Shown in pieces: positions 3,495 to 61,359 of a stretch of DNA of 64,000 bases. Both the position numbers and the translations under genes were made by a program. The stretch comes from a virus (taxonomy: Duplodnaviria; Caudoviricetes), in IMG/VR virus record IMGVR_UViG_3300017912_002502, positions 3,776 to 67,775 of that record; one strand, 5' to 3'. The notes below the pieces were generated by a model, which made no database searches, had not been told where the DNA came from, and saw only the letters and a list, made by a program, of their open reading frames with translations. Within the stretch, counting starts at the first letter, position 1, and each line of letters opens with the position of its first letter.

Positions 3495-4291
3495 AAGTTT
3501 TAATTTTTGGACTTCCAGGATCTGGAAAAACATACTTAGCTGAACTTCTATCAGTTTATTTTGGTAACAAAGCTAAATGGTTTAATGCTGATAAAGTCAG
3601 AGATGAAGCAAACGATTGGGACTTTTCCGATGAAGGTCGGTTAAGACAATCCAAACGTATGTTAGATTTATGTGAAGAAGCAGAGTCTCATTATGATATC
3701 GTCATTGCAGATTTTATTGCACCATTCGAAGTAGCAAGAGAGCAATTCAGTGCTGACTATGAAATCTTTATGGATACAATAGAAGAAAGCAAATACAAAG
3801 ACACGAATAAAATATTTGAAAAACCAGCAAATGCTGATTACATTGTTACTGATCAACGTGGTGATATTGATGCAAAAATTATTGCATACGATATAGGTCA
3901 AAAATTTTTATGGGATAATCAAGCACCAACAACACAAATGTTAGGAAGATTTCAACCATGGCATCATGGTCATCAAATTCTTTTTGAACGAGCATTAGAC
4001 AAACACGGTCAAGTAAATGTTATGATTAGAGATATGCCACATGATAATATGAAAAACCCATATGTGGCTCCGCTTGTAAAAGAAAATTTGATACAACATT
4101 TACATAATTATGCTGGGCAAGTTAAGATAGATATCGTGCCAAACATAATGAATATTACATATGGTCGAGATGTTGGATATAAGATAGAGCAAGAACATCT
4201 TGGTGAAGAAATAGAGTCTATCTCAGCAACAGAAATAAGAAGGGCTGAGCATATTAGACAACAACAAGATCCGAGGCACAATCAAGAATGA
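3491..4291 (+). CDS. cysC: Adenylylsulfate (APS) kinase fused to a HIGH-family nucleotidyltransferase
   Basis: N-terminal GLPGSGKT, NADKVR, DFSDEGR, ADFIAPF (CysC-like); C-terminal GRFQPWHHGH ... ISATEIR. Confidence 0.75.
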   Translation: MKVLIFGLPGSGKTYLAELLSVYFGNKAKWFNADKVRDEANDWDFSDEGRLRQSKRMLDLCEEAESHYDIVIADFIAPFEVAREQFSADYEIFMDTIEESKYKDTNKIFEKPANADYIVTDQRGDIDAKIIAYDIGQKFLWDNQAPTTQMLGRFQPWHHGHQILFERALDKHGQVNVMIRDMPHDNMKNPYVAPLVKENLIQHLHNYAGQVKIDIVPNIMNITYGRDVGYKIEQEHLGEEIESISATEIRRAEHIRQQQDPRHNQE

Positions 4292-13882: not shown

Positions 13883-13911
13883 TTGACATTTTTGTCTAAA
13901 TGAGGCATAAT
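13883..13911 (+). promoter_or_regulatory. sigma70-like promoter of gp43
   Basis: TTGACA-17-CATAAT with TGAGG upstream of the -10; ATG follows 6 nt later. Confidence 0.7.
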
Positions 13912-13917
13912 GGACTC

Positions 13918-16434
13918 ATGTCTGAATTCTATACATATTGCTGGCAGTATGGCAAAAACGTACTGACCAGAGGGTATCGCGATGGTAAACCCTTTACTGA
14001 ACGAGACCCAAAATTCAAACCGAAACTGTATGTCCGCTCAAACGAAGAATCAGATATCAAAGGTTTGTATGGTGAGCAGTTAAAAGAAATCGAGTTTGGC
14101 GACGCTGCCGACTGTCGAGAGTTTCTAGAAAAGTATAAAGGGATTGAGAATTATCCCATATACGGTCAAACAGATCTCACCTATCAGTATCTCTCTGAAA
14201 AATATCCAGACGATATTCCTTTTGATATGTCTGTGATGAACATACAATCTCTTGATATTGAAACCACTATTGAAAATGGTTTCCCAGATCCAGATAATCC
14301 CACTGAAAAGATTACACTGATCACAGTTGTAAATAATAACACCAAAGAAATATTGACATGGGGTGAAGGTGACTGGACTCCTGAGAGTCCTGAGATTGAT
14401 GGCTTAAATGTCACATATACTTCTTGTCAAGATGAAAAAGAACTATTGTCCAAGTTTGGTGACTGGTGGGTAAAAAATACTCCTGATATTGTCACTGGTT
14501 GGAACATCGAGTTTTTCGATATTCCCTATCTGATGAATCGTTTTGCAAGAGTATTTGGTAAGAACGATGAATTCAAAGAAAACAAAGTAAGAAACTCATT
14601 CAGCCCATTCGATATGACTCGTAAGAAAGTTGTAACGATGATGGGTAAAGCACATACTCTATATGAAATCAAGGGTGTGGCTCAACTCGATTATCTCGAC
14701 CTCTACAAAAAATTTACATACACAGTTAGAGAATCTTACAAACTAGATTACATTGCTGAGGTTGAACTTGGTTACAAAAAACTAGAAAACAATCACGAAA
14801 CATTCAAAGAGTTTTATGAAAAAGACTGGAACAGATTTGTAGATTATAATATCATCGATAGTAAATTGGTTGATGACCTTGAAGACAAGATGAAACTTAT
14901 CGAGTTGATTGCCACTATGGCATACGATGCAAAGTGTAATCTAACTGACATATATTCTTCAGTTCGTACTTGGGATTGTCTTTTGTATAATCACCTGCTA
15001 AAGAAAAACATTATGATACCACAGAAGCGTGAGAACGAAGGTCGTATTATTGAAGGTGCATATGTTCAGCAACCAGAGATTGGTGATTACAATTGGGTGT
15101 TGAGTTTCGATGCGACTTCTCTGTATCCTTCAATTATTATGCAGTACAATATGTCTCCTGAGACTTTGATGGCTGAACAACCGATTGATACATCAGTTGA
15201 TCAGTTGTTGGACAGGAAAACAAAAATTGATACTGACCTTGCCGTCGCTGCAAATGGTGTAAAATTTTCTCGTGACAAACAGGGTGTGTTCCCAGAGATT
15301 ACACAAAAGTTTTTTGATGACCGACAAAAATACAAAAAGCTGATGAAAGAAGCTGAACGCGAGTATGAAAAGACAAAAGATCCTAAACTCAAAGCAAAGA
15401 TTGCAAAGTATAATAACTTCCAGATGGCTAGAAAAATTCAGCTAAACAGTCTTTATGGTGCACTCGCTAATCAGTATTTCAGATATTATGATGACAGGAT
15501 TGGTGAAGGTATTACATTGACTGGTCAGTTTATTATCAGAGAAGCAGCGAAAGCACTGGATGAATATCTAAACAAAGTTTGTAATACTGAAGGTGAGGTA
15601 TATTCTTTCTATTCAGATACAGATTCTTGTTATATAACTCTTGACAATTTGGTCAAAAAGTATTATAATGACCAGAGTAAAGAGAAGATTGTAAATCTTC
15701 TCGATAAAATTGGTGAAGAAAAAATCGAACCTGCAATCGCAAAAGCGATGAGTGGTTTGGCAAAGTATACAAATGCCTTTGATGAAAAGATTTTCTTCAA
15801 GCGTGAAGCGATTGCGGATCGAGGTATTTGGGTTGCCAAGAAGCGATATGCTCTCAACGTCTGGGACAACGAGGGTGTTCGTTATGAAGAACCAAAACTA
15901 AAAGTTATGGGTCTTGAGATTGTAAGGTCATCGACTCCTGCTCCAGTTAGAGATAGTTTGAAAGAAGCAGTAAGAATTTGTTTATTGGAAGATGAAAAAG
16001 CGTTGCAAGATTTTGTCAATAAAACCAAAGAAGATTTTTGTCGTAGACCAGTACAAGAGATTGCTTTTCCTAGAGGTTGTAACAATCTTGAAAAGTATGC
16101 TTCTTCTTCTGACATTTATCAGAAGGGTACACCAATTCAGGTAAGAGGTGCATTGTTGTATAATAATGAATTGAAGAAACACAGACTCGGTATGAAATAT
16201 CCTAAGATACAAGAGGGTGATAAAATCAAGTTTGTGTACCTTAAAGAACCTAATACACTTGGTGAGAATACGATTGCATTCTCTACTAAGATTCCGCGTG
16301 AATTCGATCTCGATCGATTTATTGATTATGAATTGATGTTTGAGAAAGCATTTATTGAACCGCTAAATACTGTGGCAGATACTATTGGTTGGAAATCAAA
16401 ACCAGTTGCATCGCTAGAAGATTTATTTGCATAA
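13918..16434 (+). CDS. gp43: Family B DNA polymerase gp43
   Basis: ExoI DIETT, SFDATSLYPS, K..LNSLYG and YSDTDS; start moved to 13918 because the track start lies inside the promoter. Confidence 0.97.
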   Translation: MSEFYTYCWQYGKNVLTRGYRDGKPFTERDPKFKPKLYVRSNEESDIKGLYGEQLKEIEFGDAADCREFLEKYKGIENYPIYGQTDLTYQYLSEKYPDDIPFDMSVMNIQSLDIETTIENGFPDPDNPTEKITLITVVNNNTKEILTWGEGDWTPESPEIDGLNVTYTSCQDEKELLSKFGDWWVKNTPDIVTGWNIEFFDIPYLMNRFARVFGKNDEFKENKVRNSFSPFDMTRKKVVTMMGKAHTLYEIKGVAQLDYLDLYKKFTYTVRESYKLDYIAEVELGYKKLENNHETFKEFYEKDWNRFVDYNIIDSKLVDDLEDKMKLIELIATMAYDAKCNLTDIYSSVRTWDCLLYNHLLKKNIMIPQKRENEGRIIEGAYVQQPEIGDYNWVLSFDATSLYPSIIMQYNMSPETLMAEQPIDTSVDQLLDRKTKIDTDLAVAANGVKFSRDKQGVFPEITQKFFDDRQKYKKLMKEAEREYEKTKDPKLKAKIAKYNNFQMARKIQLNSLYGALANQYFRYYDDRIGEGITLTGQFIIREAAKALDEYLNKVCNTEGEVYSFYSDTDSCYITLDNLVKKYYNDQSKEKIVNLLDKIGEEKIEPAIAKAMSGLAKYTNAFDEKIFFKREAIADRGIWVAKKRYALNVWDNEGVRYEEPKLKVMGLEIVRSSTPAPVRDSLKEAVRICLLEDEKALQDFVNKTKEDFCRRPVQEIAFPRGCNNLEKYASSSDIYQKGTPIQVRGALLYNNELKKHRLGMKYPKIQEGDKIKFVYLKEPNTLGENTIAFSTKIPREFDLDRFIDYELMFEKAFIEPLNTVADTIGWKSKPVASLEDLFA

Positions 16435-37333: not shown

Positions 37334-38350
37334 ATGTCTTTATATGTGGATGTAAAATATCTGAACATGGCATCTTCTCGCTTCGAGATATTCAAGCGAA
37401 AAGGTGAATATCTGTTCAATGTCCGTTGCCCTATCTGTGGCGACTCTCAAAAGAACAAACGCAAGATGCGTGGTTATTTCTTCAAACGAAATAACGATCT
37501 CCTCTATAAATGTCATAACTGCCAATGGTCTGGATCTTTCGGTAAACTACTGAAGGAAGTAGACCAGATTCTTTATAAACAATATGTCCTAGAAAGATTT
37601 GCTGACGGCGAGACTGGTAAGGGTAAAGGACACTCTAAACCAGAGGTTGTGATGGATTTCAAACCTAAGTTTGAAAAGAAACCTATCATTGAACAACTGA
37701 TGGATAAACTATCAGATCTCCCAGCTGATCACGAGGCAGTCGAGTATGCACTCGGTCGTGGACTCCCACCTAAATCTCTTGAAAGACTATTCTACGTTGA
37801 TAATGTTCAAAACGTAGCAGGTCTGAATAAGAAATATAAAGAATCAATCAAAACTGATGAGCCAAGATTAGCCATCCCATTTATAGACGAGAAGGGTAAG
37901 TTGACAGCAGTCAGCCTTCGAGGGATGCGAGATGAGGCTCTAAGGTACATCCTCGTTAAGGTAGACGAGGATGCTCCAACTGTCTACGGTCTGGATACAG
38001 TCGATAAGAACAAGCCAGTTATCGTTGTTGAAGCACCACTTGACAGTTTATTCATCCCCAACTCCATCGCTTGTGCTGGCACTTCTTTCAACAAGATCGA
38101 TGAGTTGGGGTTGGACAAGGACAAAACGACAATCGTCTTCGATAATCAACCACGAAATAAAGAAGTTTGTAAAATGCTTGAAAAGTATATTGACTTGGGA
38201 TATAATGTCGTGGTTTATCCCGACAATATAACTGGTAAAGATATAAACGATATAGAAAATGAAGGGATTGATTCGTATAAATTAATAAGGGAGAACACTT
38301 TTAGTGGGCTCACTGCTAAAGCTAAATTTTCGTTATGGAGAAAAACATGA
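37334..38350 (+). CDS. gp61: DNA primase gp61
   Basis: Zn finger CPICGD...CHNC and TOPRIM VVEAPLDS, VFDNQP. Confidence 0.95.
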   Translation: MSLYVDVKYLNMASSRFEIFKRKGEYLFNVRCPICGDSQKNKRKMRGYFFKRNNDLLYKCHNCQWSGSFGKLLKEVDQILYKQYVLERFADGETGKGKGHSKPEVVMDFKPKFEKKPIIEQLMDKLSDLPADHEAVEYALGRGLPPKSLERLFYVDNVQNVAGLNKKYKESIKTDEPRLAIPFIDEKGKLTAVSLRGMRDEALRYILVKVDEDAPTVYGLDTVDKNKPVIVVEAPLDSLFIPNSIACAGTSFNKIDELGLDKDKTTIVFDNQPRNKEVCKMLEKYIDLGYNVVVYPDNITGKDINDIENEGIDSYKLIRENTFSGLTAKAKFSLWRKT

Positions 38351-38997
38351 GTGAAGTGTCTTTGGTTGCACTGAGTAAACCATCAGCTATAACAGATTGT
38401 AACACTGCTGCTGAATTGGTTGCATATACTGCTAGGGTGAGTAATCCTACAAACCAAAATAATACCGCGACAGCCCCAAAATTATTGGGATATCTGATAC
38501 GCGAAGACCACTGGTCTCCATTTGAGATGGTACATATGACAATGGAGATTAAGACTACTAGGGATATTGCCAGACAGATATTACGTCACAGGTCATTTTC
38601 CTTCCAAGAGTTTAGTCAGCGATATGCTGAAGCAACTGAATGGGAAACAAGAGAAGCGAGATTACAAGATCTCAAAAATCGTCAAAACTCAATGGAAACT
38701 GACGACCCAGAAATAAATGAAATGTGGAATGTTGTTCAAAAGAAACTAATCAAAAATGCCGAAGATGCCTACAAGTGGGCATTAGAACAAGGTATCGCAA
38801 AAGAACAAGCACGTGCTGTTTTACCAGAGGGTAATACCATGTCTACATTATACATGGCTGGTTCATTACGCTCTTGGATACACTATTGTCAATTGCGCAC
38901 TGGTAACGGTACGCAGAAAGAACATATCAAAGTTGCAGAAAAATGCTGGGAGATTATTGAGCAACATTTTCCCGATGTTGTAAAGGCTCTTAAATGA
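38347..38997 (+). CDS. thyX: Flavin-dependent thymidylate synthase
   Basis: HWSPFE, QILRHRSFSFQEFSQRY signature and TQKEH. Confidence 0.96.
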   Translation: MSEVSLVALSKPSAITDCNTAAELVAYTARVSNPTNQNNTATAPKLLGYLIREDHWSPFEMVHMTMEIKTTRDIARQILRHRSFSFQEFSQRYAEATEWETREARLQDLKNRQNSMETDDPEINEMWNVVQKKLIKNAEDAYKWALEQGIAKEQARAVLPEGNTMSTLYMAGSLRSWIHYCQLRTGNGTQKEHIKVAEKCWEIIEQHFPDVVKALK

Positions 38998-52025: not shown

Positions 52026-52204
52026 AGAATCAGGTTTCTATGCATTTTGCTCTCACATGTGGAGAGAAAATTGTCAAGAACGTAGAGACTGGCAAGAAGA
52101 GATCTTAGATAAAGATATCTATATTGCTCGCAATCTATCATTCCTGAAAGAAGCATTCGAAGAGGAAAAGGATTTGTGGTGTGAATTAGCCACTGGTTGA
52201 TCAA
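52004..52204 (+). CDS. Hypothetical protein
   Basis: 66-aa ORF overlapping both neighbours. Confidence 0.45.
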
Positions 52205-53229
52205 TGGCTATAAAATATACGAAGGACGATTCTAACGTCAAGAAAATGTATCTTGACACACGACATTGTTTGCGCCAAGGCAAACACCGACCAAATTATC
52301 GACTCCCACCTGAAGCATATGCATTTGGTCGTGCAACTCCTATTAGTCTGCTCAATGCAGAATTTTATTTTTTTGGACCAGATACTCTCGATAATTGTGT
52401 CGAGATGGAAGATTATGTTCGGAAAGCTGGGTATGTAGATGATAATGATACTCTAATTCCAGTTGTATATAAGACAAACGATTTCGGATATCGTGAACAA
52501 AAAGATATGATCAACCCAGAGCATGTGGGTAATTGTATTTTGGTCACTGGTAATTCAGCTGCATTTGCAACAGCACAACACGAGGAGGATGGGTTCTGCT
52601 ATCACCTCGAGGAGTTTGCTGGGATACCAGTCTATAATCTAGGCATAAATAACGGTGGAAGCAAATCTTCTTATAGGATTATCAAAGCGTGGCGAAATAT
52701 TCTTCAACCCTATTGTACGATTTCTCATTTAGTTTGGGACACAACTAGATTAGAATTCGAGGATGCCATACAAGTTGGACCACATAACTGGAAACGTATC
52801 TTCAAAGAGTATTACAAGAATGTAGATTATTTCGGCGACCGAAAGTCAGAAGATTTTGGTGGCAAGATCCGTGAACCAAACAAAGAACAGTTATACAATC
52901 AGATGACAGAGATATGGGAAAAGGATCTAGAGTTACTTCTTGAAGTGGAAAAAAATCTAAATGTAATTTGGGATCTGCAAGTGCAACACGAATTAGATGT
53001 AGACCAATCAACAAAAGAAAAATATCAAGACCACGAAAACATTTTGGTTACACCTTGGACTTTCTATAAAAAAGATGCTGAACATTGGACTGATCAGGAG
53101 AAAGAAGAGTATATGGCTGGTAAACCTGCAAGGGATGGTATTCACGAATCTGCAGAAAATTATCGAGCCAGTGCAGAAAAATGCACTGAAATTTTAAGGA
53201 GAAGAAAATGGATCCCCTCACACACTTAA
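52204..53229 (+). CDS. SGNH/GDSL-like protein, paralog 2
   Basis: YKTNDFGYR, TGNS, YNLG and ARDGIH. Confidence 0.6.
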   Translation: MAIKYTKDDSNVKKMYLDTRHCLRQGKHRPNYRLPPEAYAFGRATPISLLNAEFYFFGPDTLDNCVEMEDYVRKAGYVDDNDTLIPVVYKTNDFGYREQKDMINPEHVGNCILVTGNSAAFATAQHEEDGFCYHLEEFAGIPVYNLGINNGGSKSSYRIIKAWRNILQPYCTISHLVWDTTRLEFEDAIQVGPHNWKRIFKEYYKNVDYFGDRKSEDFGGKIREPNKEQLYNQMTEIWEKDLELLLEVEKNLNVIWDLQVQHELDVDQSTKEKYQDHENILVTPWTFYKKDAEHWTDQEKEEYMAGKPARDGIHESAENYRASAEKCTEILRRRKWIPSHT

Positions 53230-53390: not shown

Positions 53391-54701
53391 ATGTCTGACG
53401 TAATTTGTCCATATATCCTGAATCACGTTTATACAGGAACGCGAAACGAACGTAGACTTTGCTGTTCATCTACACCCAGAGTTTCACAAGATAAAAAGCG
53501 TACAGATGAAGAGTGGTGGAACTCGGAGGAAATGAAAAGCATCAGACGTAAGATGATGCGAGGTGAAAAACTCGAGATGTGTAATGTGTGTTACTATCGA
53601 GAGGATAATGGTCTGGAGTCATTACGCCAAGAGGCATTACAAGAGTTTGATATTGAGGAACTAAAATCTAATCTAAATGAAGATGGCTCGATGTCGATCC
53701 AACCAGAATATTTTGAACATAAATCTGTGCATTGTAATCTACAATGCCAAACTTGCACACCTGTCCTATCCTCTACATGGGCGACACTCGAGAAAAAGAT
53801 GTTTGGGTTCAAGTGGGCGAACAATATGGATGCACCATACGAACAAGCACAAGCAGATTCTATTATCAAAGCTATACTCGAGAAAAGATGTAAGAAAATA
53901 AACTGGGCTGGTGGTGAACCAATGATGATGCCAGTACACTGGAAGGTTACAGATAAACTCGTTGAACTATTAGACGATCCAGAGTATTCAGCCTATGTCA
54001 AAACAATCAAGATCCAATACAACACAAACCTAACTCGTAGTATCTGGAAAAACAAATCAATACCTGAAATGCTCCAGCCATTCAATATTGAACTAAGAAC
54101 TTCAATGGATGGTGTCGGCGATACATTTGAATTCAATCGCGATGGAGCGAAGTGGGATGAATGCTGGAAAACTTGGAATCAATATTACGATCTAGGGTTT
54201 GATATAGAAGTGAACTCAGTCTATACATCGACAGTTATTATGCAGATGGAAGAATACCAACGACTCTATGTCGACAAAGACGTAAGATTCTACGACCACA
54301 TTTACGTTTGCTATCCTGATCAGTATCCTGGAGGAGGACAGGGATTTATGGACGTAAGATTATTCCCACAACACATATTCGATCGTATAGTTACGAATGC
54401 AGAGAACGTGCTGAAAAAATATATGAACGAAGGTTACGAGCGAGGATTAGATATCCTTAGAATATATCGTGACGAAAAACAGAAGTATGAAAACCTTTTT
54501 GAAAACGAGGACACATTACGAAAGATGAAAGGGTATGCTGAATATAGGGATAACTTTTGCGAGAACGTAAAGTACCAAGATTTGATATGGACTTTAGATG
54601 AAGAGGCAGCTGAATGGTTCGACAAAATAGAATCATTACCATATGACCCAAATGAAAATAAACAGTCAGGCTGGAGAGCCGAAGACTGGGAGGACAGATA
54701 A
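53391..54701 (+). CDS. Radical SAM enzyme with an N-terminal Cys-rich (Twitch-like) region
   Basis: HCNLQCQTC, AGGEPM and YNTN; N-terminal CPY..CC..CNVC. Confidence 0.85.
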   Translation: MSDVICPYILNHVYTGTRNERRLCCSSTPRVSQDKKRTDEEWWNSEEMKSIRRKMMRGEKLEMCNVCYYREDNGLESLRQEALQEFDIEELKSNLNEDGSMSIQPEYFEHKSVHCNLQCQTCTPVLSSTWATLEKKMFGFKWANNMDAPYEQAQADSIIKAILEKRCKKINWAGGEPMMMPVHWKVTDKLVELLDDPEYSAYVKTIKIQYNTNLTRSIWKNKSIPEMLQPFNIELRTSMDGVGDTFEFNRDGAKWDECWKTWNQYYDLGFDIEVNSVYTSTVIMQMEEYQRLYVDKDVRFYDHIYVCYPDQYPGGGQGFMDVRLFPQHIFDRIVTNAENVLKKYMNEGYERGLDILRIYRDEKQKYENLFENEDTLRKMKGYAEYRDNFCENVKYQDLIWTLDEEAAEWFDKIESLPYDPNENKQSGWRAEDWEDR

Positions 54702-54703
54702 AA

Positions 54704-55531
54704 GTGAAAGACCATTGGTTATATGCTCGAGGTTTTTATGAGAAACCAAAAGAGTATTCATTTTACAGCACCGATACAGAAGATAAGTATCAAAAAAACC
54801 TGAAAGAAAATTTTGAAGAATTAAAATTAAACGGTTGGATTCATCATGACGTAGAAGAAGATGATCGTGTACTCGGTTACAAATACGACTATAACCCATA
54901 TAATCCTCAAATAAATGACTGGGTAAATCTTTCATACAAAATAAATGAGCATGGTTTTAGAGGTGAAGAAATGCCCAAAGAGAAAAAACCAAGAAGCATA
55001 ATGACTCTTGGATGTTCGAATACATTTGGAGTCGGTATGCCTGTCGGTCAAATTTGGTCAACACTTGTCGGTAATACATTACGTCAACGAGCATATAATC
55101 TTGGTGTTCCAAGTGGTTCTTTAGATACATGCTTTAGAGTTTTACTTGCTTGGCTTCCTAAAATTAGACCTTCTCATGTATTTTTATTGGAGCCTCCAGG
55201 AGTCAGATATGAAACTCATATTCTATCAGGGATTATACCATCTTCAGTTGAAAGCCCAGAACCAGTAGCTTTTAGATTTGAGCATGAAGATGAGTGGGTT
55301 CTTCATAGAGAGAAAACGATGAGAGGAATTAAATCATTGTGTGATCAATTCGATACGCCTTTCTATCATTTAAGTTATGATGCACACTTAACTAAAGAAA
55401 TTGCTGAGTTCTTTTCATTCATTGACTCAGCCAGAGATCTGATGCATCCAGGAAGAAATGCTCACACATATATTGCTATGAATATGTTAAAACTAGCTGG
55501 ATATAAATGGGATGTTGAAATAAATGGATAA
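54704..55531 (+). CDS. SGNH/GDSL-like protein, paralog 3
   Basis: YKINEHGFRG, LGCSNTFG, YNLG and ARDLMHPG. Confidence 0.65.
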   Translation: MKDHWLYARGFYEKPKEYSFYSTDTEDKYQKNLKENFEELKLNGWIHHDVEEDDRVLGYKYDYNPYNPQINDWVNLSYKINEHGFRGEEMPKEKKPRSIMTLGCSNTFGVGMPVGQIWSTLVGNTLRQRAYNLGVPSGSLDTCFRVLLAWLPKIRPSHVFLLEPPGVRYETHILSGIIPSSVESPEPVAFRFEHEDEWVLHREKTMRGIKSLCDQFDTPFYHLSYDAHLTKEIAEFFSFIDSARDLMHPGRNAHTYIAMNMLKLAGYKWDVEING

Positions 55532-55949
55532 ATGGGATTACGCACATATGGAGGTGGCTCGGATTTATTCTCAGCTATCATCCGCAAAACGATTACAAGT
55601 CGGCGCAGTCATAGTAAAAGATAAAAGAGTATTGTCTATCGGTTATAATGGTATGCCGACAAAATGGACTAACGAATGTGAATTCACAGATGAACATGGC
55701 TTGAACACTTATACAAAACCTGAAGTGTTACATGCCGAGACAAACGCGATTGCAAAAGTTGCGAAGTCAAGCGAGAGTTGCGATGGCGCAACAATATATA
55801 CAACAACCGCACCATGCCTTGATTGTGCTAAGTTAATTTATCAATCTGGTATAAAACGTGTCGTCTGGAATACACCACATTTACGAAGCGATGATGGTGT
55901 TCAATTCCTAATGAAATGTGAAGGTGTATCAGTGGAGCATTTAGAATGA
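55524..55949 (+). CDS. cd: dCMP deaminase
   Basis: GYNG, LHAETNAI and PCLDC. Confidence 0.93.
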   Translation: MDKWDYAHMEVARIYSQLSSAKRLQVGAVIVKDKRVLSIGYNGMPTKWTNECEFTDEHGLNTYTKPEVLHAETNAIAKVAKSSESCDGATIYTTTAPCLDCAKLIYQSGIKRVVWNTPHLRSDDGVQFLMKCEGVSVEHLE

Positions 55950-56749
55950 AAATAACTATTTTTGGTTATGGATTTGTAGGTCGAGCACATGAGATGGCTC
56001 TGTCGGTTCATGGGTTGCATGAGATTACAATCGTAGATCCGAAGTTCGAAGCATGGGATATTGGTAATCCTGAAGCGATTATTATCGCAGTGTCAACACC
56101 ACAAGGTAAATATGGTGCATGTGATATGACTAATGTATATGCTGCATTGGATGAATGTCCTCCAAATATTCCTATTCTGATCAAGTCAACTATATCTCTC
56201 GAGGGATGGGATCATATCTGTGAGCACTATCCTGAACACGAGGTTACATTCAGTCCTGAGTTTCTACGAGCAGACCATGCACTCGAGGATTTTAACAATA
56301 GAGAAAAAATGTTCTTTGGTGGTGGTGATGATTTATTCTGGGCAACTCTATTTTGGAAACAGGGTTGTGAAATGGTCAGACGCGATCCAGAAGAACTTAT
56401 CGTGATGAAATATACAATCAATAGTTTTCTGGCGACAAAGGTCGCCTTTCTCAATCAAATCTATGATATGTGTCAGAGTGCTGGTATAAATTATGATACA
56501 GTAAAAGATTTGATTGCAACCGACGAGCGTATCGGTCAGTCACATTTGGAAGTGACTCAAGAAAGGGGTTTCGGTGGACATTGCTTCCCGAAAGATACCA
56601 ATGCGCTCGTCCACTCTGGAGTAAAACAAGGAGTAGATCTTTCTATTTTAAAGTCTGCCATAGACTATAACGATGGTCTAAAGAATGTAAAACATATCAG
56701 TTACGCTTTAGAGGGTATAATGAAACGGTTTGAAAGAGATAAGAATTAA
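55946..56749 (+). CDS. UDP-glucose/GDP-mannose 6-dehydrogenase-like protein lacking the C-terminal domain
   Basis: GYGFVG, KSTI, SPEFL, KYTINSFLA and GFGGHCFPKD; only 267 aa. Confidence 0.85.
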   Translation: MKITIFGYGFVGRAHEMALSVHGLHEITIVDPKFEAWDIGNPEAIIIAVSTPQGKYGACDMTNVYAALDECPPNIPILIKSTISLEGWDHICEHYPEHEVTFSPEFLRADHALEDFNNREKMFFGGGDDLFWATLFWKQGCEMVRRDPEELIVMKYTINSFLATKVAFLNQIYDMCQSAGINYDTVKDLIATDERIGQSHLEVTQERGFGGHCFPKDTNALVHSGVKQGVDLSILKSAIDYNDGLKNVKHISYALEGIMKRFERDKN

Positions 56750-56752
56750 TGC

Positions 56753-56781
56753 TTGACATCTATAAAGGAGTAAAGTATAAT
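56753..56781 (+). promoter_or_regulatory. Consensus sigma70 promoter upstream of the modification operon
   Basis: TTGACA-17-TATAAT; the -10 overlaps the ATG of the 60-aa ORF. Confidence 0.8.
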
Positions 56782-56976: not shown

Positions 56977-58281
56977 ATGGTAAAAGAACTTACAATTGAA
57001 AAAGTCGACTGTGAAGACAAACTAGGTAAATGGCTCGATGAGTCAACCTATGATCAAGTCATCACTGAAGACACTGACTTATATGCTCTCGATAAATTCG
57101 AGGCAAATGGTGAACACAATGTCATCTTCAAGTTTCGTAAAGGTGTATTCTCATCTCAGGAACAGCAAGATGCATATGATGGATTGGCTCCAGCTGCAAT
57201 TGAAACTCAGAATCGTGGGTTGGCTGCTGGACCACGTGCAGGGCAAAATGGCAAACGTGACTGGGTTACACCTCTACAAGAGGATATTCTAGACGCTATC
57301 TTTACCGCACCAGACTCGTCACTTGATGACGAGTTTGACGCGATTGAAAATGCTATTGCTAGACATAAACCAGATGAAGCTGGTCGTGGTCGTGTATGGT
57401 TACGCGACAACATCAAGAAAACAGGAGTTGAATACTCTGAATTCTTCGACTGGTGGCTCGACTCTGTTCGTCCACTATCTCCTGCAGAACGTAAAGTCGA
57501 AGCAAAGAGTATGGTCAAAAACTATATTTCAGATACATCATACGCGAATACAGTGAACTCTGGTATCGCTGGATGGTTCGATAGATATCCTCGGATTCCA
57601 TATGGTCGTGCTACAGCATACACTGAAAAGAATCCTGAACTATTCGCGAAGTCGTATCCATATCTGCAGACTCTGGCTCGTAAGTTTGAAGAGTTACTGC
57701 CTGAAAGATATGCAAGACAAAAAGCATTCACTGATCAGATCGATCCAGCGTTTGTTGTTCCTGAAACTCCTTACACAACACTAACAGTCAACAGGACATT
57801 CAGAACTGCTGCACATAGAGATGCTGGTGATTACACTGAAGGTTTCTCTAATATCAGTTGCATCTCTCCAGATGGTAAAAAAGGTTGGGATGGTTGTCTG
57901 TTTGTTCTACCTGAATATCGTATCGCAGTTGAGTTGCATCCAGGAGATCTCCTGCTTGTAAACAATCACGATGGTATTCACGGCAATACTGAAATCATTG
58001 GTGACGATCCTATCCGTATTTCGATCGTCGCATATGCTCGTGAGAAAATGGCTCTGCTTGGGTCATATGATTACGAGAATCTCAGACGTCAGTTCGTTGA
58101 TGACAGACGTTTGAATGAAGAACATCCCGAGTGGCGACCACTCTGGAATGGCGTATCTACTAAAATGTGGGATTCACAAGAGTGGTACGACTATCTCAGA
58201 GAGCGAGGTGGAGAAGAAATGCTGAACAAGTATCATCCGTCAGCATCCACAGGATCCGCATCACTCGAGGATTTGTTCTAA
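56977..58281 (+). CDS. Tet/JBP-family 2OG-Fe(II) DNA base dioxygenase
   Basis: TLTVN...TAAHRD (HxD), GDLLL...HGNT (distal H) and RISIVAYAREKM (2OG-binding RxS). Confidence 0.85.
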   Translation: MVKELTIEKVDCEDKLGKWLDESTYDQVITEDTDLYALDKFEANGEHNVIFKFRKGVFSSQEQQDAYDGLAPAAIETQNRGLAAGPRAGQNGKRDWVTPLQEDILDAIFTAPDSSLDDEFDAIENAIARHKPDEAGRGRVWLRDNIKKTGVEYSEFFDWWLDSVRPLSPAERKVEAKSMVKNYISDTSYANTVNSGIAGWFDRYPRIPYGRATAYTEKNPELFAKSYPYLQTLARKFEELLPERYARQKAFTDQIDPAFVVPETPYTTLTVNRTFRTAAHRDAGDYTEGFSNISCISPDGKKGWDGCLFVLPEYRIAVELHPGDLLLVNNHDGIHGNTEIIGDDPIRISIVAYAREKMALLGSYDYENLRRQFVDDRRLNEEHPEWRPLWNGVSTKMWDSQEWYDYLRERGGEEMLNKYHPSASTGSASLEDLF

Positions 58282-58928
58282 TGTGCGCAGTTATTGGCGC
58301 ATCTCTAGTCTCTCCCAGCAATCAAGACCTAGATCTGGTGAGAGATGTTTTTCTCGAATCTCGTATTCGAGGTTTGCATGCGACTGGTGTGTCGTATGTT
58401 AAACAAGGTAAGGTTGCCACTCTCATTAAACCTGTCCCTGCTCCTGACTTCTTCTCTCTCGTTGAAATGGAGCAATTTGTTAATGAGGATGGCAACCTTT
58501 ACCTGATAGGTCACTGTCGTTATTCAACCAGTGACCTTCGATTTAACCAACCCATACAAACTAATCCAGACTTGGCGATCGTACACAATGGTGTAGTGAC
58601 ACAGGAGTTACCACATAACTGGGAATATTTGTATGGTTATCAAACTGAGACAGCCAATGATAGTGAACTGATCAATAGAACACTAGAAGCTGGACTGAAT
58701 CCTCAAGATATCTGGGCAGACTCGTCATTATCTGTAATCGAGTTACGCTCTGATAAATCTATGAAAGCATATCGCAACGGAAAGCGACCACTATACAGAA
58801 CGCAGATGCACAACGGTACTATTTTCACATCAACGAAAGATATTGCCATCCGTGCTGGTCTGCCTGATAATCAAGAACTTATGGAAAATGGAGGAATAAA
58901 TGCTGACTTACAGCCCAGCTACTCGTGA
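58281..58928 (+). CDS. Stand-alone class II (Ntn) glutamine amidotransferase domain
   Basis: True start is the TAATG-coupled MCAVIG (Cys2 nucleophile); RGLHATG, GHCRYST, HNGV and NDSE. Confidence 0.85.
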   Translation: MCAVIGASLVSPSNQDLDLVRDVFLESRIRGLHATGVSYVKQGKVATLIKPVPAPDFFSLVEMEQFVNEDGNLYLIGHCRYSTSDLRFNQPIQTNPDLAIVHNGVVTQELPHNWEYLYGYQTETANDSELINRTLEAGLNPQDIWADSSLSVIELRSDKSMKAYRNGKRPLYRTQMHNGTIFTSTKDIAIRAGLPDNQELMENGGINADLQPSYS

Positions 58929-59553
58929 TGAGGTAGAACATTTATTACTCGTCTCGGAAGAAGGTAAGAACACTCGCTTCCTAAAATCATCACACAATCT
59001 GTGGTATCGTTTTAAAAACTATACAAAAGCACCACCACTCGCTGCACGTGAGGGTAATGATATTGTCGCTCTGATATTTGCCACATTCAATAAAGATGGT
59101 TACACGAATCTATATGAGATCGTTACAATGGAAGGTCATGAGGGTAAAGGATATGGCTCGAAGGTATGGGAATATTTCTTAGACTACGCAGTGAACCAGA
59201 AACAGAGTAAACGATTAAAGATATCTTGTACGCCATCATCAGTTACTTGGCATATGCGTAATGGTCTGGTGTTCTGGGCAGTCGATCCATCTGGTAGTTT
59301 ACGATCTGATCAGCCACTGTTTGCTACTCGAGGTGAGCAGTTGGAGTTTCGTGCGAAGGCGATTGTAACTCCGAGTATCGCCAAACCTACTAATCCTCGA
59401 GTGATAGAACAATTAAAGAAAGAAGCACCAGAGTCTCATGGCTTTGGTAAAAAGAAAATGAGTGCCACAGAGGAAGCAATTGCTGCTGTCGGCGAGTGTT
59501 GGTTACGCGATGCATTATATGAGGATGCATCTCTGGAGAGTCTGTTTGACTGA
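58900..59553 (+). CDS. GNAT acetyltransferase
   Basis: LYEIVT...EGKGYGS acetyl-CoA-binding motif A. Confidence 0.78.
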   Translation: MLTYSPATRDEVEHLLLVSEEGKNTRFLKSSHNLWYRFKNYTKAPPLAAREGNDIVALIFATFNKDGYTNLYEIVTMEGHEGKGYGSKVWEYFLDYAVNQKQSKRLKISCTPSSVTWHMRNGLVFWAVDPSGSLRSDQPLFATRGEQLEFRAKAIVTPSIAKPTNPRVIEQLKKEAPESHGFGKKKMSATEEAIAAVGECWLRDALYEDASLESLFD

Positions 59554-60565
59554 TTATAGAAAAAAAGAAAATCGTAGAGAAGCATTCAAGCGATGGTATG
59601 CTTGGTCATTGAAGCATGGTGATTGCGATCCAGCGATATGGCTCGGTAATTATCTGAACAAAAGATACGAACACAATGACGAACAGCGACTTTGGTTTGC
59701 TTGGTTATATGGTAACACATACTATCTCCCGACATCGTGGGTATTGATGAATGAGTTTCCTGATTATGAACTGGCTACATTCGATCGTATGGACGCATGG
59801 AACACAGAGAACTATAAGCGACTACGATATCAGACAGACACCAAGTGGAGCAAAGGACATCTAGCTGATATGTTTAAATCATACGAGGTATTTGTTACTC
59901 CTGCTCGTACACAACGCCAAGCTATCGAATCTTATTATGGTGATACAGAGGAACAGAACTTTGATAATCTCTGGACAGCATTCAAGGAAAAGCTGTATAA
60001 GTTTGGACGCTATTCCGTCTGGTTTTATATGCAACAATTGAAACACACAGCAGACGTAGCAATCGAACCAACCAGTCTGATGTTTAATGATTACTCTGGC
60101 TCTCGATCTCATCGTAATGGATGGCTATATGCATTGGGACAAGAACACAACGTGGATACAAGATTGACTCCTGCCGAGTATGATAGACTCGAAGCAGAGG
60201 GTACTGAACTGATCAAAGAAATGAAAGCTGAATATCCTGAACTATCCAAAGACATTAATTATTTCTCGATGGAAACCTGTCTGTGTTCATTCAAGAAGTT
60301 ATTTCGTAAGAATCATGGCAGATATCTGGGTTACTATCTGGACAGACAAGCTGAAGAGATATTGAAAGTCGAGCAAGATGGTTGGTCTGGTATCGAGTGG
60401 GAAGTTTTGTGGCAAGCAAGACGTGAATGTTTGGACTTGACTTTAGCTGGTAAAACAGGAATAATCAAAGAAAAATATGCATCGTTTATGAATACAGGCA
60501 GACTCGATAGACTTGAGATGATGTATCGTGACGAGAAAAAAGTGGAAGGAGTGTTACCATTATGA
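59546..60565 (+). CDS. alpha-glutamyl/putrescinyl-thymine pyrophosphorylase clade 2 (amino-group:DNA transferase)
   Basis: GDCDP, EQRLWFAWLYGNTY, KFGRYS, SRSHRNG and METCLCSFKK; TTG start with GGAG SD inferred. Confidence 0.78.
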   Translation: MTDYRKKENRREAFKRWYAWSLKHGDCDPAIWLGNYLNKRYEHNDEQRLWFAWLYGNTYYLPTSWVLMNEFPDYELATFDRMDAWNTENYKRLRYQTDTKWSKGHLADMFKSYEVFVTPARTQRQAIESYYGDTEEQNFDNLWTAFKEKLYKFGRYSVWFYMQQLKHTADVAIEPTSLMFNDYSGSRSHRNGWLYALGQEHNVDTRLTPAEYDRLEAEGTELIKEMKAEYPELSKDINYFSMETCLCSFKKLFRKNHGRYLGYYLDRQAEEILKVEQDGWSGIEWEVLWQARRECLDLTLAGKTGIIKEKYASFMNTGRLDRLEMMYRDEKKVEGVLPL

Positions 60566-61331: not shown

Positions 61332-61359
61332 TTGACATTTATCTCTAATTAGGTATAAT
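61332..61359 (+). promoter_or_regulatory. sigma70-like early promoter
   Basis: TTGACA-16-TATAAT with an upstream A-tract. Confidence 0.75.

Follow-up and report, generated by a model that had tools for sequence, protein, structure and literature searches.

What does a glutamine-hydrolysing enzyme do in a set of genes that modifies thymine in phage DNA? The question is raised by five overlapping plus-strand genes in a 64-kb stretch of DNA (the window; positions 3,776 to 67,775 of the 67.8-kb viral record IMGVR_UViG_3300017912_002502). In order, they encode a TET/JBP-family dioxygenase (TET), a stand-alone class II glutamine amidotransferase domain (GATase), a GNAT acyltransferase, an amino acid:DNA transferase (AADT; aGPT-Pplase clade 2) and a P-loop kinase for 5-hydroxymethyl-deoxyuridine (5-hmdU) in DNA. 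The phage is T4-like, encoding a family B polymerase, RNase H and ThyX, and the record is approximately 42% complete according to CheckV, so that absences from it are provisional. An initial annotation of the locus had proposed that glutamine nitrogen serves as the nucleophile of the AADT, giving 5-aminomethyl-deoxyuridine (5-aminomethyl-dU, 5-NmdU) that the GNAT then acetylates. The comparative evidence fits this proposal better than any of its rivals: the GATase is accompanied by AADT in 104 of 104 informative loci, the association is independent of TET, natural fusions exist, and the slot between the two genes is occupied mainly by predicted acylating enzymes. We therefore read the five genes as a putative unit for post-replicative thymine hypermodification via glutamine-derived 5-aminomethyl-dU and its subsequent acetylation, a predicted chemistry to which we give about an even chance of being correct.

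GATase and AADT across viral loci

Two scans of IMG/VR, together with contig look-ups, yielded 113 distinct GATase loci, the neighbours of which were assigned by BLAST. AADT is present in 104 of these, and in the other 9 the contig stops less than 1.5 kb from the GATase; the two genes co-occur in every informative locus (104/104). The GATase family is large, numbering 4042 representatives (E <= 1e-3) and some 490 contigs of IMG/VR, and is highly abundant among the T4-like phages found in environmental metagenomes. What separates the GATase from AADT varies considerably. A GNAT of the window type is found there in 51 of the 104 loci, and a second GNAT family (GNAT2), the similarity of which to the window type is undetectable, occupies the slot alone in 7, so that 58/104 loci, including the window, have only a GNAT or GNAT2 between the two genes. 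A divergent amidoligase plus GNAT2, with or without a 437-aa protein of no assigned function, is present in 26 loci. A further 11 have Amidoligase_2 together with a low-molecular-weight phosphatase, in some cases accompanied by a TET-associated glycosyltransferase. The divergent amidoligase stands alone in 1 locus, while the GATase directly adjoins AADT in 5 and is fused to it in 3. The main enzymes of this variable slot, the GNATs and amidoligases, are predicted to acylate amines, as would be expected if the DNA carried a primary-amine handle.

The link of the GATase is to AADT and is independent of TET, or of how 5-hydroxymethyluracil (5hmU) arises. In seven distinct loci, a thymidylate-synthase-like gene replaces TET, and the GATase is either adjacent (L104-L107) or fused (L097, L098, and L099/L100) to AADT; the kinases of these TET-less loci also belong to other families (HMUDK_HMUD1, HMUD2, and HMUDK_hel). 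L103, truncated at its 5' end, adds another contig of the type seen in L097, and in L125 the GATase adjoins AADT, with both TET and the thymidylate-synthase-like gene unseen on the available stretch. The fusion proteins form at least three clusters, P0219 (588 aa; the cluster of L097), P0269 (555 aa) and P0270 (584 aa), all with an MCG start, the GATase at the N-terminus and AADT at the C-terminus, and they retain the GATase motifs as well as the Glu-Thr-x-Leu-Cys motif of AADT. Because P0270 occurs on contigs of two independent samples, it is not an assembly artefact. Beside the fusion in L098, nothing but kinases and the thymidylate-synthase-like gene was found, while in L099 the fusion is followed by a 203-aa homolog of the window GNAT family (E 3e-6). 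In fused N-terminal nucleophile (Ntn) amidotransferases such as PurF, GlmS and AsnB, the glutaminase domain is likewise N-terminal, with the acceptor domain next.

The GATase and its partner enzymes

The initial annotation had moved the start of the GATase gene from GTG 58167, where the open reading frame (ORF) is listed, to the in-frame ATG at 58281, which overlaps the upstream TAA (TAATG). This start is fixed by the family itself, because 142 of 150 representatives (clustered at 50% identity) begin with Met-Cys. The 215-aa translation opens with MCAVIG, in agreement with the Met-Cys-Ala start given earlier, and GATase_6 is its sole domain, so that the protein indeed has no synthase domain. 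Removal of the initiator Met makes Cys2 the N-terminal nucleophile, and Cys is thus the first residue of the mature protein (MCAV start), as in class II (Ntn) enzymes. Across the 150 representatives, C2, R30, G31, H78, R80, T83, S84, N103 and G104 are invariant wherever an aligned residue is present, and D127 is conserved in all but one. This set contains an oxyanion Asn-Gly pair (N103, G104) and glutamine-holding Arg and Asp residues (R30, R80, D127). The corresponding glutamine-site and oxyanion residues of GlmS are Arg26, Arg73, Asn98, Gly99 and Asp123, and we take the conserved GATase residues to be the nucleophile, oxyanion hole and glutamine-binding residues known from GlmS and PurF. Position 26 of the glmS model aligns with GATase residue 30, and the closest NCBIfam model is purF.

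An AlphaFold2 (AF2) model of the GATase (predicted local distance difference test, pLDDT, 82.6; predicted template modelling score, pTM, 0.82) has the four-layer alpha-beta-beta-alpha Ntn fold, and a Foldseek search with this model returned GFAT/GlmS, PurF and EgtC at the top, with probability 1.00 and TM scores of 0.66-0.70 for GlmS, PurF and GFAT. Sequence searches of the PDB with the GATase or its profile gave nothing useful, and the fold search alone was informative. Together, residues and model indicate that the GATase is an intact Ntn enzyme with predicted activity towards a glutamyl amide. It shares with PurF and GlmS the N-terminal Cys nucleophile, the Arg/Asn-Gly/Asp glutamine site and the fold, and its fused relatives share their domain order. 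By contrast, the window glutaminase is a separate 215-aa protein, its acceptor would be a base in DNA, and AADT is unrelated to the phosphoribosyltransferase and isomerase domains of those enzymes. Near the C-terminus of the GATase (residues 208-212, 58902-58916) lies a conserved Asp-Leu-Gln stretch, with Asp present in 121/150 and Gln in 132/150 representatives, that is disordered in the AF2 model and kept in the linker of fusion P0270; this motif could be a docking peptide. Matches to the GATase in cultured phages, obtained with tblastn, correspond to N-terminal domains of 530-aa proteins in the amidoligase/ATP-grasp/BtrG systems of LUZ24, PaP3 and tf; these are distant relatives and were not used.

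The AADT gene likely starts at TTG 59546, which has GGAG 7 nt upstream, and not at GTG 59462. The protein is 29-31% identical to ViI gp247, the nearest characterised AADT, with which it has a long C-terminal region in common. Its METCLC motif aligns with VETILC of gp46, the glycine:DNA transferase of Pseudomonas phage PaMx11, and keeps the metal-binding Glu243 and Thr244 and the catalytic Cys247, a motif that is invariant in 14 cassette AADTs. The alignment also keeps Asp24 and Trp146 of gp46, and Lys150, which in gp46 holds the glycine amine (PMC11472151), is replaced by an invariant Gln. In the mechanism described for gp46, Cys247 adds to C6, the phosphate is lost and the amine attacks the exocyclic methylene (PMC11472151); we predict that the window AADT likewise exchanges the phosphate of 5-phosphomethyl-dU for a nitrogen nucleophile. 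The nucleophiles accepted by the AADT family comprise glycine, serine and putrescine, the last of which has no carboxylate (PMC8989533, Table 1). A PDB sequence search with AADT returned nothing useful. In Mycobacterium phage Fortunato, gene 2 (L179:1258-2826), a neighbour of ParB-like and kinase genes, encodes a 522-aa protein with an AADT domain in the C-terminal two thirds; the first approximately 165 residues are unassigned and do not belong to the GATase family of the window. The window kinase is 28% identical to PaMx11 gp49 (E 3e-5), and its gene overlaps the stop codon of AADT, so that a predicted 5-hmdU DNA kinase is immediately adjacent to the transferase.

Proteins of phages DLP_6, C48C1 and Cr30 share 42-51% identity with TET. 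The Tet_JBP match, together with the lack of a C5-cytosine methyltransferase to supply 5-methylcytosine (PF00145 is unmatched in the 67.8-kb record), points to a thymine dioxygenase, and the predicted TET reaction is oxidation of DNA thymine to 5-hydroxymethyluracil. A ThyX gene is present and no ThyA-like gene was found in the 67.8-kb fragment; we propose that ThyX provides dTMP, so that the incorporated base is thymine and not 5hmU. The GNAT contains an E-G-K-G-Y-G acyl-CoA loop and is predicted, acyl donor included, to be an N-acetyltransferase of a DNA-borne amine.

Additional information on where these enzymes work comes from their C-termini. The family B polymerase ends in ASLEDLFA, and closely matching tails are present on TET (ASLEDLF, 58255-58278) and the GNAT (ASLESLFD, 59527-59550), and on no other ORF of the 72 examined in the window. 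Across loci, counting distinct tails, such an ending is found on 46/52 TET, 18/25 GNAT and 21/61 AADT proteins, compared to 0/64 for the GATase and 1/49 for the kinase. T4-family polymerases bind the sliding clamp via a C-terminal tail, and the shared sequence is probably a clamp-binding motif, which suggests that the DNA-acting enzymes of the cassette ride the clamp. Since both TET and the GNAT end in the tail of the polymerase, the GNAT probably works on DNA.

A predicted route to 5-aminomethyl-dU and its rivals

In the route that we favour, ThyX and dCMP deaminase would feed dTTP, and ordinary thymine would be incorporated into DNA. The pathway would be entered through the TET/JBP dioxygenase, which would hydroxylate DNA thymine to 5-hmdU, and not through a dUMP hydroxymethylase. 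The P-loop kinase would generate 5-phosphomethyl-dU, following which the catalytic Cys of AADT would add at C6 and the phosphate would be expelled, leaving an exocyclic methylene. The GATase, as a subunit of AADT, would hydrolyse glutamine and hand over the ammonia to give 5-aminomethyl-dU, and GATase and AADT together would resemble a two-subunit, PurF-like "glutamine:5-phosphomethyl-dU(DNA) amidotransferase". PurF itself swaps pyrophosphate for glutamine-derived ammonia. Finally, the GNAT would acetylate the primary amine to 5-acetamidomethyl-dU, and the base proposed for PaMx11 would be reached with neither glycine transfer nor flavin-dependent cleavage on the way.

The 5-acetylaminomethyl-dU pathway of PaMx11 consists of the glycine:DNA transferase gp46, the FAD lyase gp47, the acetyltransferase gp48 and the 5-hmdU DNA kinase gp49 (PMC8989533, PMC11472151). 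The window cassette has in common with it a homologous kinase, a clade-2 AADT with Glu-Thr-x-x-Cys, a GNAT and the same predicted end product. However, 5hmU in the window would be made by TET/JBP on DNA, whereas that of PaMx11 comes from a dUMP hydroxymethylase; a glutamine amidotransferase takes the place of the flavin enzyme; and the window AADT belongs to the ViI-like subfamily and not to that of gp46 and M6. The GNAT has no significant similarity to gp48 (BLASTP E 0.095 over 26 residues), and the two, which have only the superfamily in common, are not regarded as orthologs.

Characterised AADT systems that lack a GATase carry PLP (pyridoxal phosphate), FAD or radical SAM (S-adenosylmethionine) enzymes instead (PMC8989533), with Montesquieu as a further case. 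The conserved GATase module has no PLP, FAD or radical SAM enzyme, unlike those systems, and we count this in favour of glutamine-derived nitrogen. The earlier statement that the operon contains no maturase thus holds for the promoter-bounded unit and for the conserved module. A twitch-domain radical SAM gene (53391-54701; NF033640, 281 bits) does lie 3.6 kb upstream. We considered this gene as a maturase like M6 gp53 and rejected it: the protein has no similarity to gp53 and belongs to family NF033640, and the gene is upstream of the promoter and missing from the close relatives L006, L015 and L018, which do have the cassette.

The gene combination itself is already in print, so that only the proposed mechanism and role of the GATase stand as new. 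Metavirome clusters that pair TET_JBP/5mYOX with a P-loop kinase, AADT and GATase appear in Lee 2021 (PMC8989533, section 21) and O'Toole 2026 (PMC13229309), in which glutaminotransferase genes near 5-HMUDK and aGPT-Pplase2 are listed as "function not yet known" (PMC8989533, PMC13229309). O'Toole 2026 also counts GATases as part of the machinery associated with T-dioxygenases of clade C1 (PMC13229309). The window cassette is a member of exactly this kind of neighbourhood. The GATase-linked subclass is called ParB-dependent (O'Toole 2026), whereas the 67.8-kb fragment has no ParB homolog (PF02195 without match at E <= 0.1). A role for the GATase, its fusion or its TET-independent adjacency to AADT is not described in the available text of PMC8989533 and PMC13229309. 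Full-text literature searches found no glutamine-dependent route to 5-NmdU. To our knowledge, every route characterised so far begins with attachment of an amino acid or a polyamine, which is then sculpted.

If correct, the proposed route would add to the known enzyme activities an amidotransferase that acts on DNA, and would allow thymine in duplex DNA to be equipped with a reactive primary amine in one enzymatic step. A function would also be given to a glutaminotransferase family listed without a role in two papers, and the natural GATase-AADT fusions make the role of the glutamine enzyme directly testable. Thymidine hypermodifications shield phage DNA against nucleases of the restriction and CRISPR types and are used as tools in enzymatic DNA labelling. 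More tentatively, and with chances that we put a little short of even, this would be the first amidotransferase with its acceptor base in polymeric DNA, a PurF-like enzyme, split in most phages and fused in some, that would place a glutamine-derived primary amine on thymine, and 5-aminomethyl-dU would be a universal handle capped with acetyl, aminoacyl or other acyl groups by interchangeable GNATs and amidoligases. Such a universal amine handle would explain the combinatorial diversity of the cassettes.

Several observations weigh against glutamine-derived ammonia. EgtC ranks equal to the amidotransferases in Foldseek, so the modelled fold alone does not demonstrate ammonia release to a partner. 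The AF2 model of fusion P0270 has good domains, but its pTM is 0.69 and the linker is disordered, so that the model does not show a fixed GATase-AADT interface and speaks neither for nor against channelling; a fold search with it returned matches for the GATase domain only. TET-type loci, including the window, place the GATase gene beside TET and not beside AADT. Of the characterised transferases, ViI gp247, which transfers serine, is the one closest to AADT, and in the AADT tree, which has long branches and a nested non-GATase group (support 84/79), the GATase-linked AADTs do not appear as a demonstrably separate clade. The GNAT is not a gp48 ortholog, and its acyl donor is a prediction. Finally, a single 2.7-kb contig encodes a 523-aa GATase-Amidoligase_2 fusion (P0160; L101:418-1989), with a GNAT of the window family next to it (E 3e-12), suggesting that the GATase may also, or instead, serve the amidoligase where one is present.

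The alternative that survives best, although we consider it unlikely, is that AADT transfers an ordinary amino acid, e.g., serine, the amine of which is acetylated by the GNAT, while the GATase acts elsewhere, for instance by amidating the carboxylate together with an activating enzyme. The kinship of AADT with ViI gp247, in the same large clade, is in line with this, as are the P0160 fusion and the many cassettes with an amidoligase able to activate a carboxylate. No GATase was found in ViI, and a PLP decarboxylase matures its O-seryl-thymidine (PMC8989533). However, the 58 loci with only GNAT or GNAT2 in the slot, as well as L098, have no carboxylate-activating enzyme, which would leave the GATase without an acceptor, and amino acid transfer offers no explanation for the fusion and adjacency of GATase and AADT in TET-less loci.

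A second alternative retains glutamine but reverses the order of events. AADT would attach glutamine itself via the amide nitrogen, and an EgtC-like GATase would trim the resulting gamma-glutamyl compound to glutamate and 5-aminomethyl-dU, which would be passed on to the GNAT. The window GATase is, like EgtC, stand-alone, of the same fold and in about the same size class (220-230 aa), at an identity of 11-13%, and EgtC, a stand-alone Ntn hydrolase, is among its top structural matches. The glutamyl-holding R80 and D127, given their conservation, suit either substrate, and fusion or adjacency is equally expected of two consecutive enzymes. Against this, an amide nitrogen is a poor nucleophile in general chemistry, and amidotransferases canonically have the Ntn domain at the N-terminus and the acceptor domain after it; EgtC is not known to have a synthase partner or to occur fused to one. 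The lack of the polymerase-like tail on all 64 GATases also speaks against an enzyme trimming adducts on DNA, albeit weakly given that the kinase is without the tail as well. Overall, we regard trimming as doubtful, and less probable than transfer of an amino acid.

The notion that the GATase activates TET/JBP or supplies its cofactor, instead of partnering AADT, is very improbable. In its favour, in TET-type loci with enough upstream flank the GATase gene follows TET immediately in nearly all cases, and the stop and start codons usually overlap or abut (a gap of approximately 600 bases exists in three loci, L068, L139 and L175); moreover, one subclass of phage T-dioxygenases is known to depend on a partner, namely ParB (PMC13229309). 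Against it, GATase and AADT occur together in loci without TET, the complete phages DLP_6 and C48C1 carry a 47-51% identical TET and neither AADT nor GATase, and glutamine hydrolysis would have no obvious tie to Fe(II)/2-oxoglutarate chemistry.

Expression unit and neighbouring genes

The features of the window are collected in the table below. All five cassette genes exceed their Pfam cut-offs in a profile search, and successive overlaps of 1, 29, 8 and 4 nt would favour translational coupling. The initial annotation had listed three genes, and the GNAT and aGPT-PPlase2 that it placed right after the glutaminase are both confirmed by Pfam; the set was nevertheless too small, as the unit also takes in Tet_JBP directly upstream and Ploopntkinase3 directly downstream. 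A megablast comparison of the cassette with GenBank phages gave no match.

Features of the cassette and related genes in the window (positions are those of the 64-kb stretch)
Feature	Position	Strand	Basis
Sigma-70 promoter TTGACA-17-TATAAT, heading the unit	56753..56781	+	12/12 consensus match; function predicted from sequence
TET/JBP-family Fe(II)/2-oxoglutarate (2OG) dioxygenase, 434 aa	56977..58281	+	Pfam Tet_JBP, 65.4 bits (cut-off 34.9)
Stand-alone class II (Ntn) glutamine amidotransferase domain, 215 aa	58281..58928	+	GATase_6, 33.5 bits (cut-off 27)
GNAT acyltransferase, 217 aa	58900..59553	+	Pfam Acetyltransf_1, 32.2 bits (cut-off 20.7)
Amino acid:DNA transferase (AADT, aGPT-Pplase clade 2), 339 aa	59546..60565	+	ADDT PF18724, 61.4 bits (cut-off 26.2)
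P-loop 5-hydroxymethyl-dU DNA kinase, 189 aa	60562..61131	+	Pfam Ploopntkinase3, 56.5 bits (cut-off 27)
Second perfect sigma-70 site, past the kinase gene	61332-61359		12/12 consensus match; function predicted from sequence
ThyX flavin-dependent thymidylate synthase	38335..38997	+	PF02511, 145.9 bits
Family B DNA polymerase, C-terminus ASLEDLFA	13900..16434	+	

Since two perfect promoter sequences bracket the cassette, the five genes, together with a 60-aa ORF, appear to form a single unit of early transcription. The vicinity of the cassette lacks a T4-type late box (TATAAATA), and this promoter pattern suggests early expression by the host polymerase.

Upstream of the promoter, a gene for a 267-aa nucleotide-sugar dehydrogenase-like protein (55946-56749), with the N-terminal and central domains of UDP-glucose dehydrogenase and without the C-terminal domain, lies between dCMP deaminase and the cassette. 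Both this gene and the dCMP deaminase gene were considered as parts of the cassette core and set aside, as they accompany it in the nearest relatives only. The radical SAM gene is flanked by genes for a 341-aa (52204-53229) and a 275-aa (54704-55531) protein, neither of which has a family match or is conserved with the cassette; relatives of the 275-aa protein are present in two or three copies per locus in related phages. In two loci with a GATase 74% identical to that of the window, a TnsA-like endonuclease gene (PF08722; L006:8153-8530 and L007:5245-5622) and a 67-aa ORF are located between AADT and the kinase, in what looks like a mobile endonuclease insertion.

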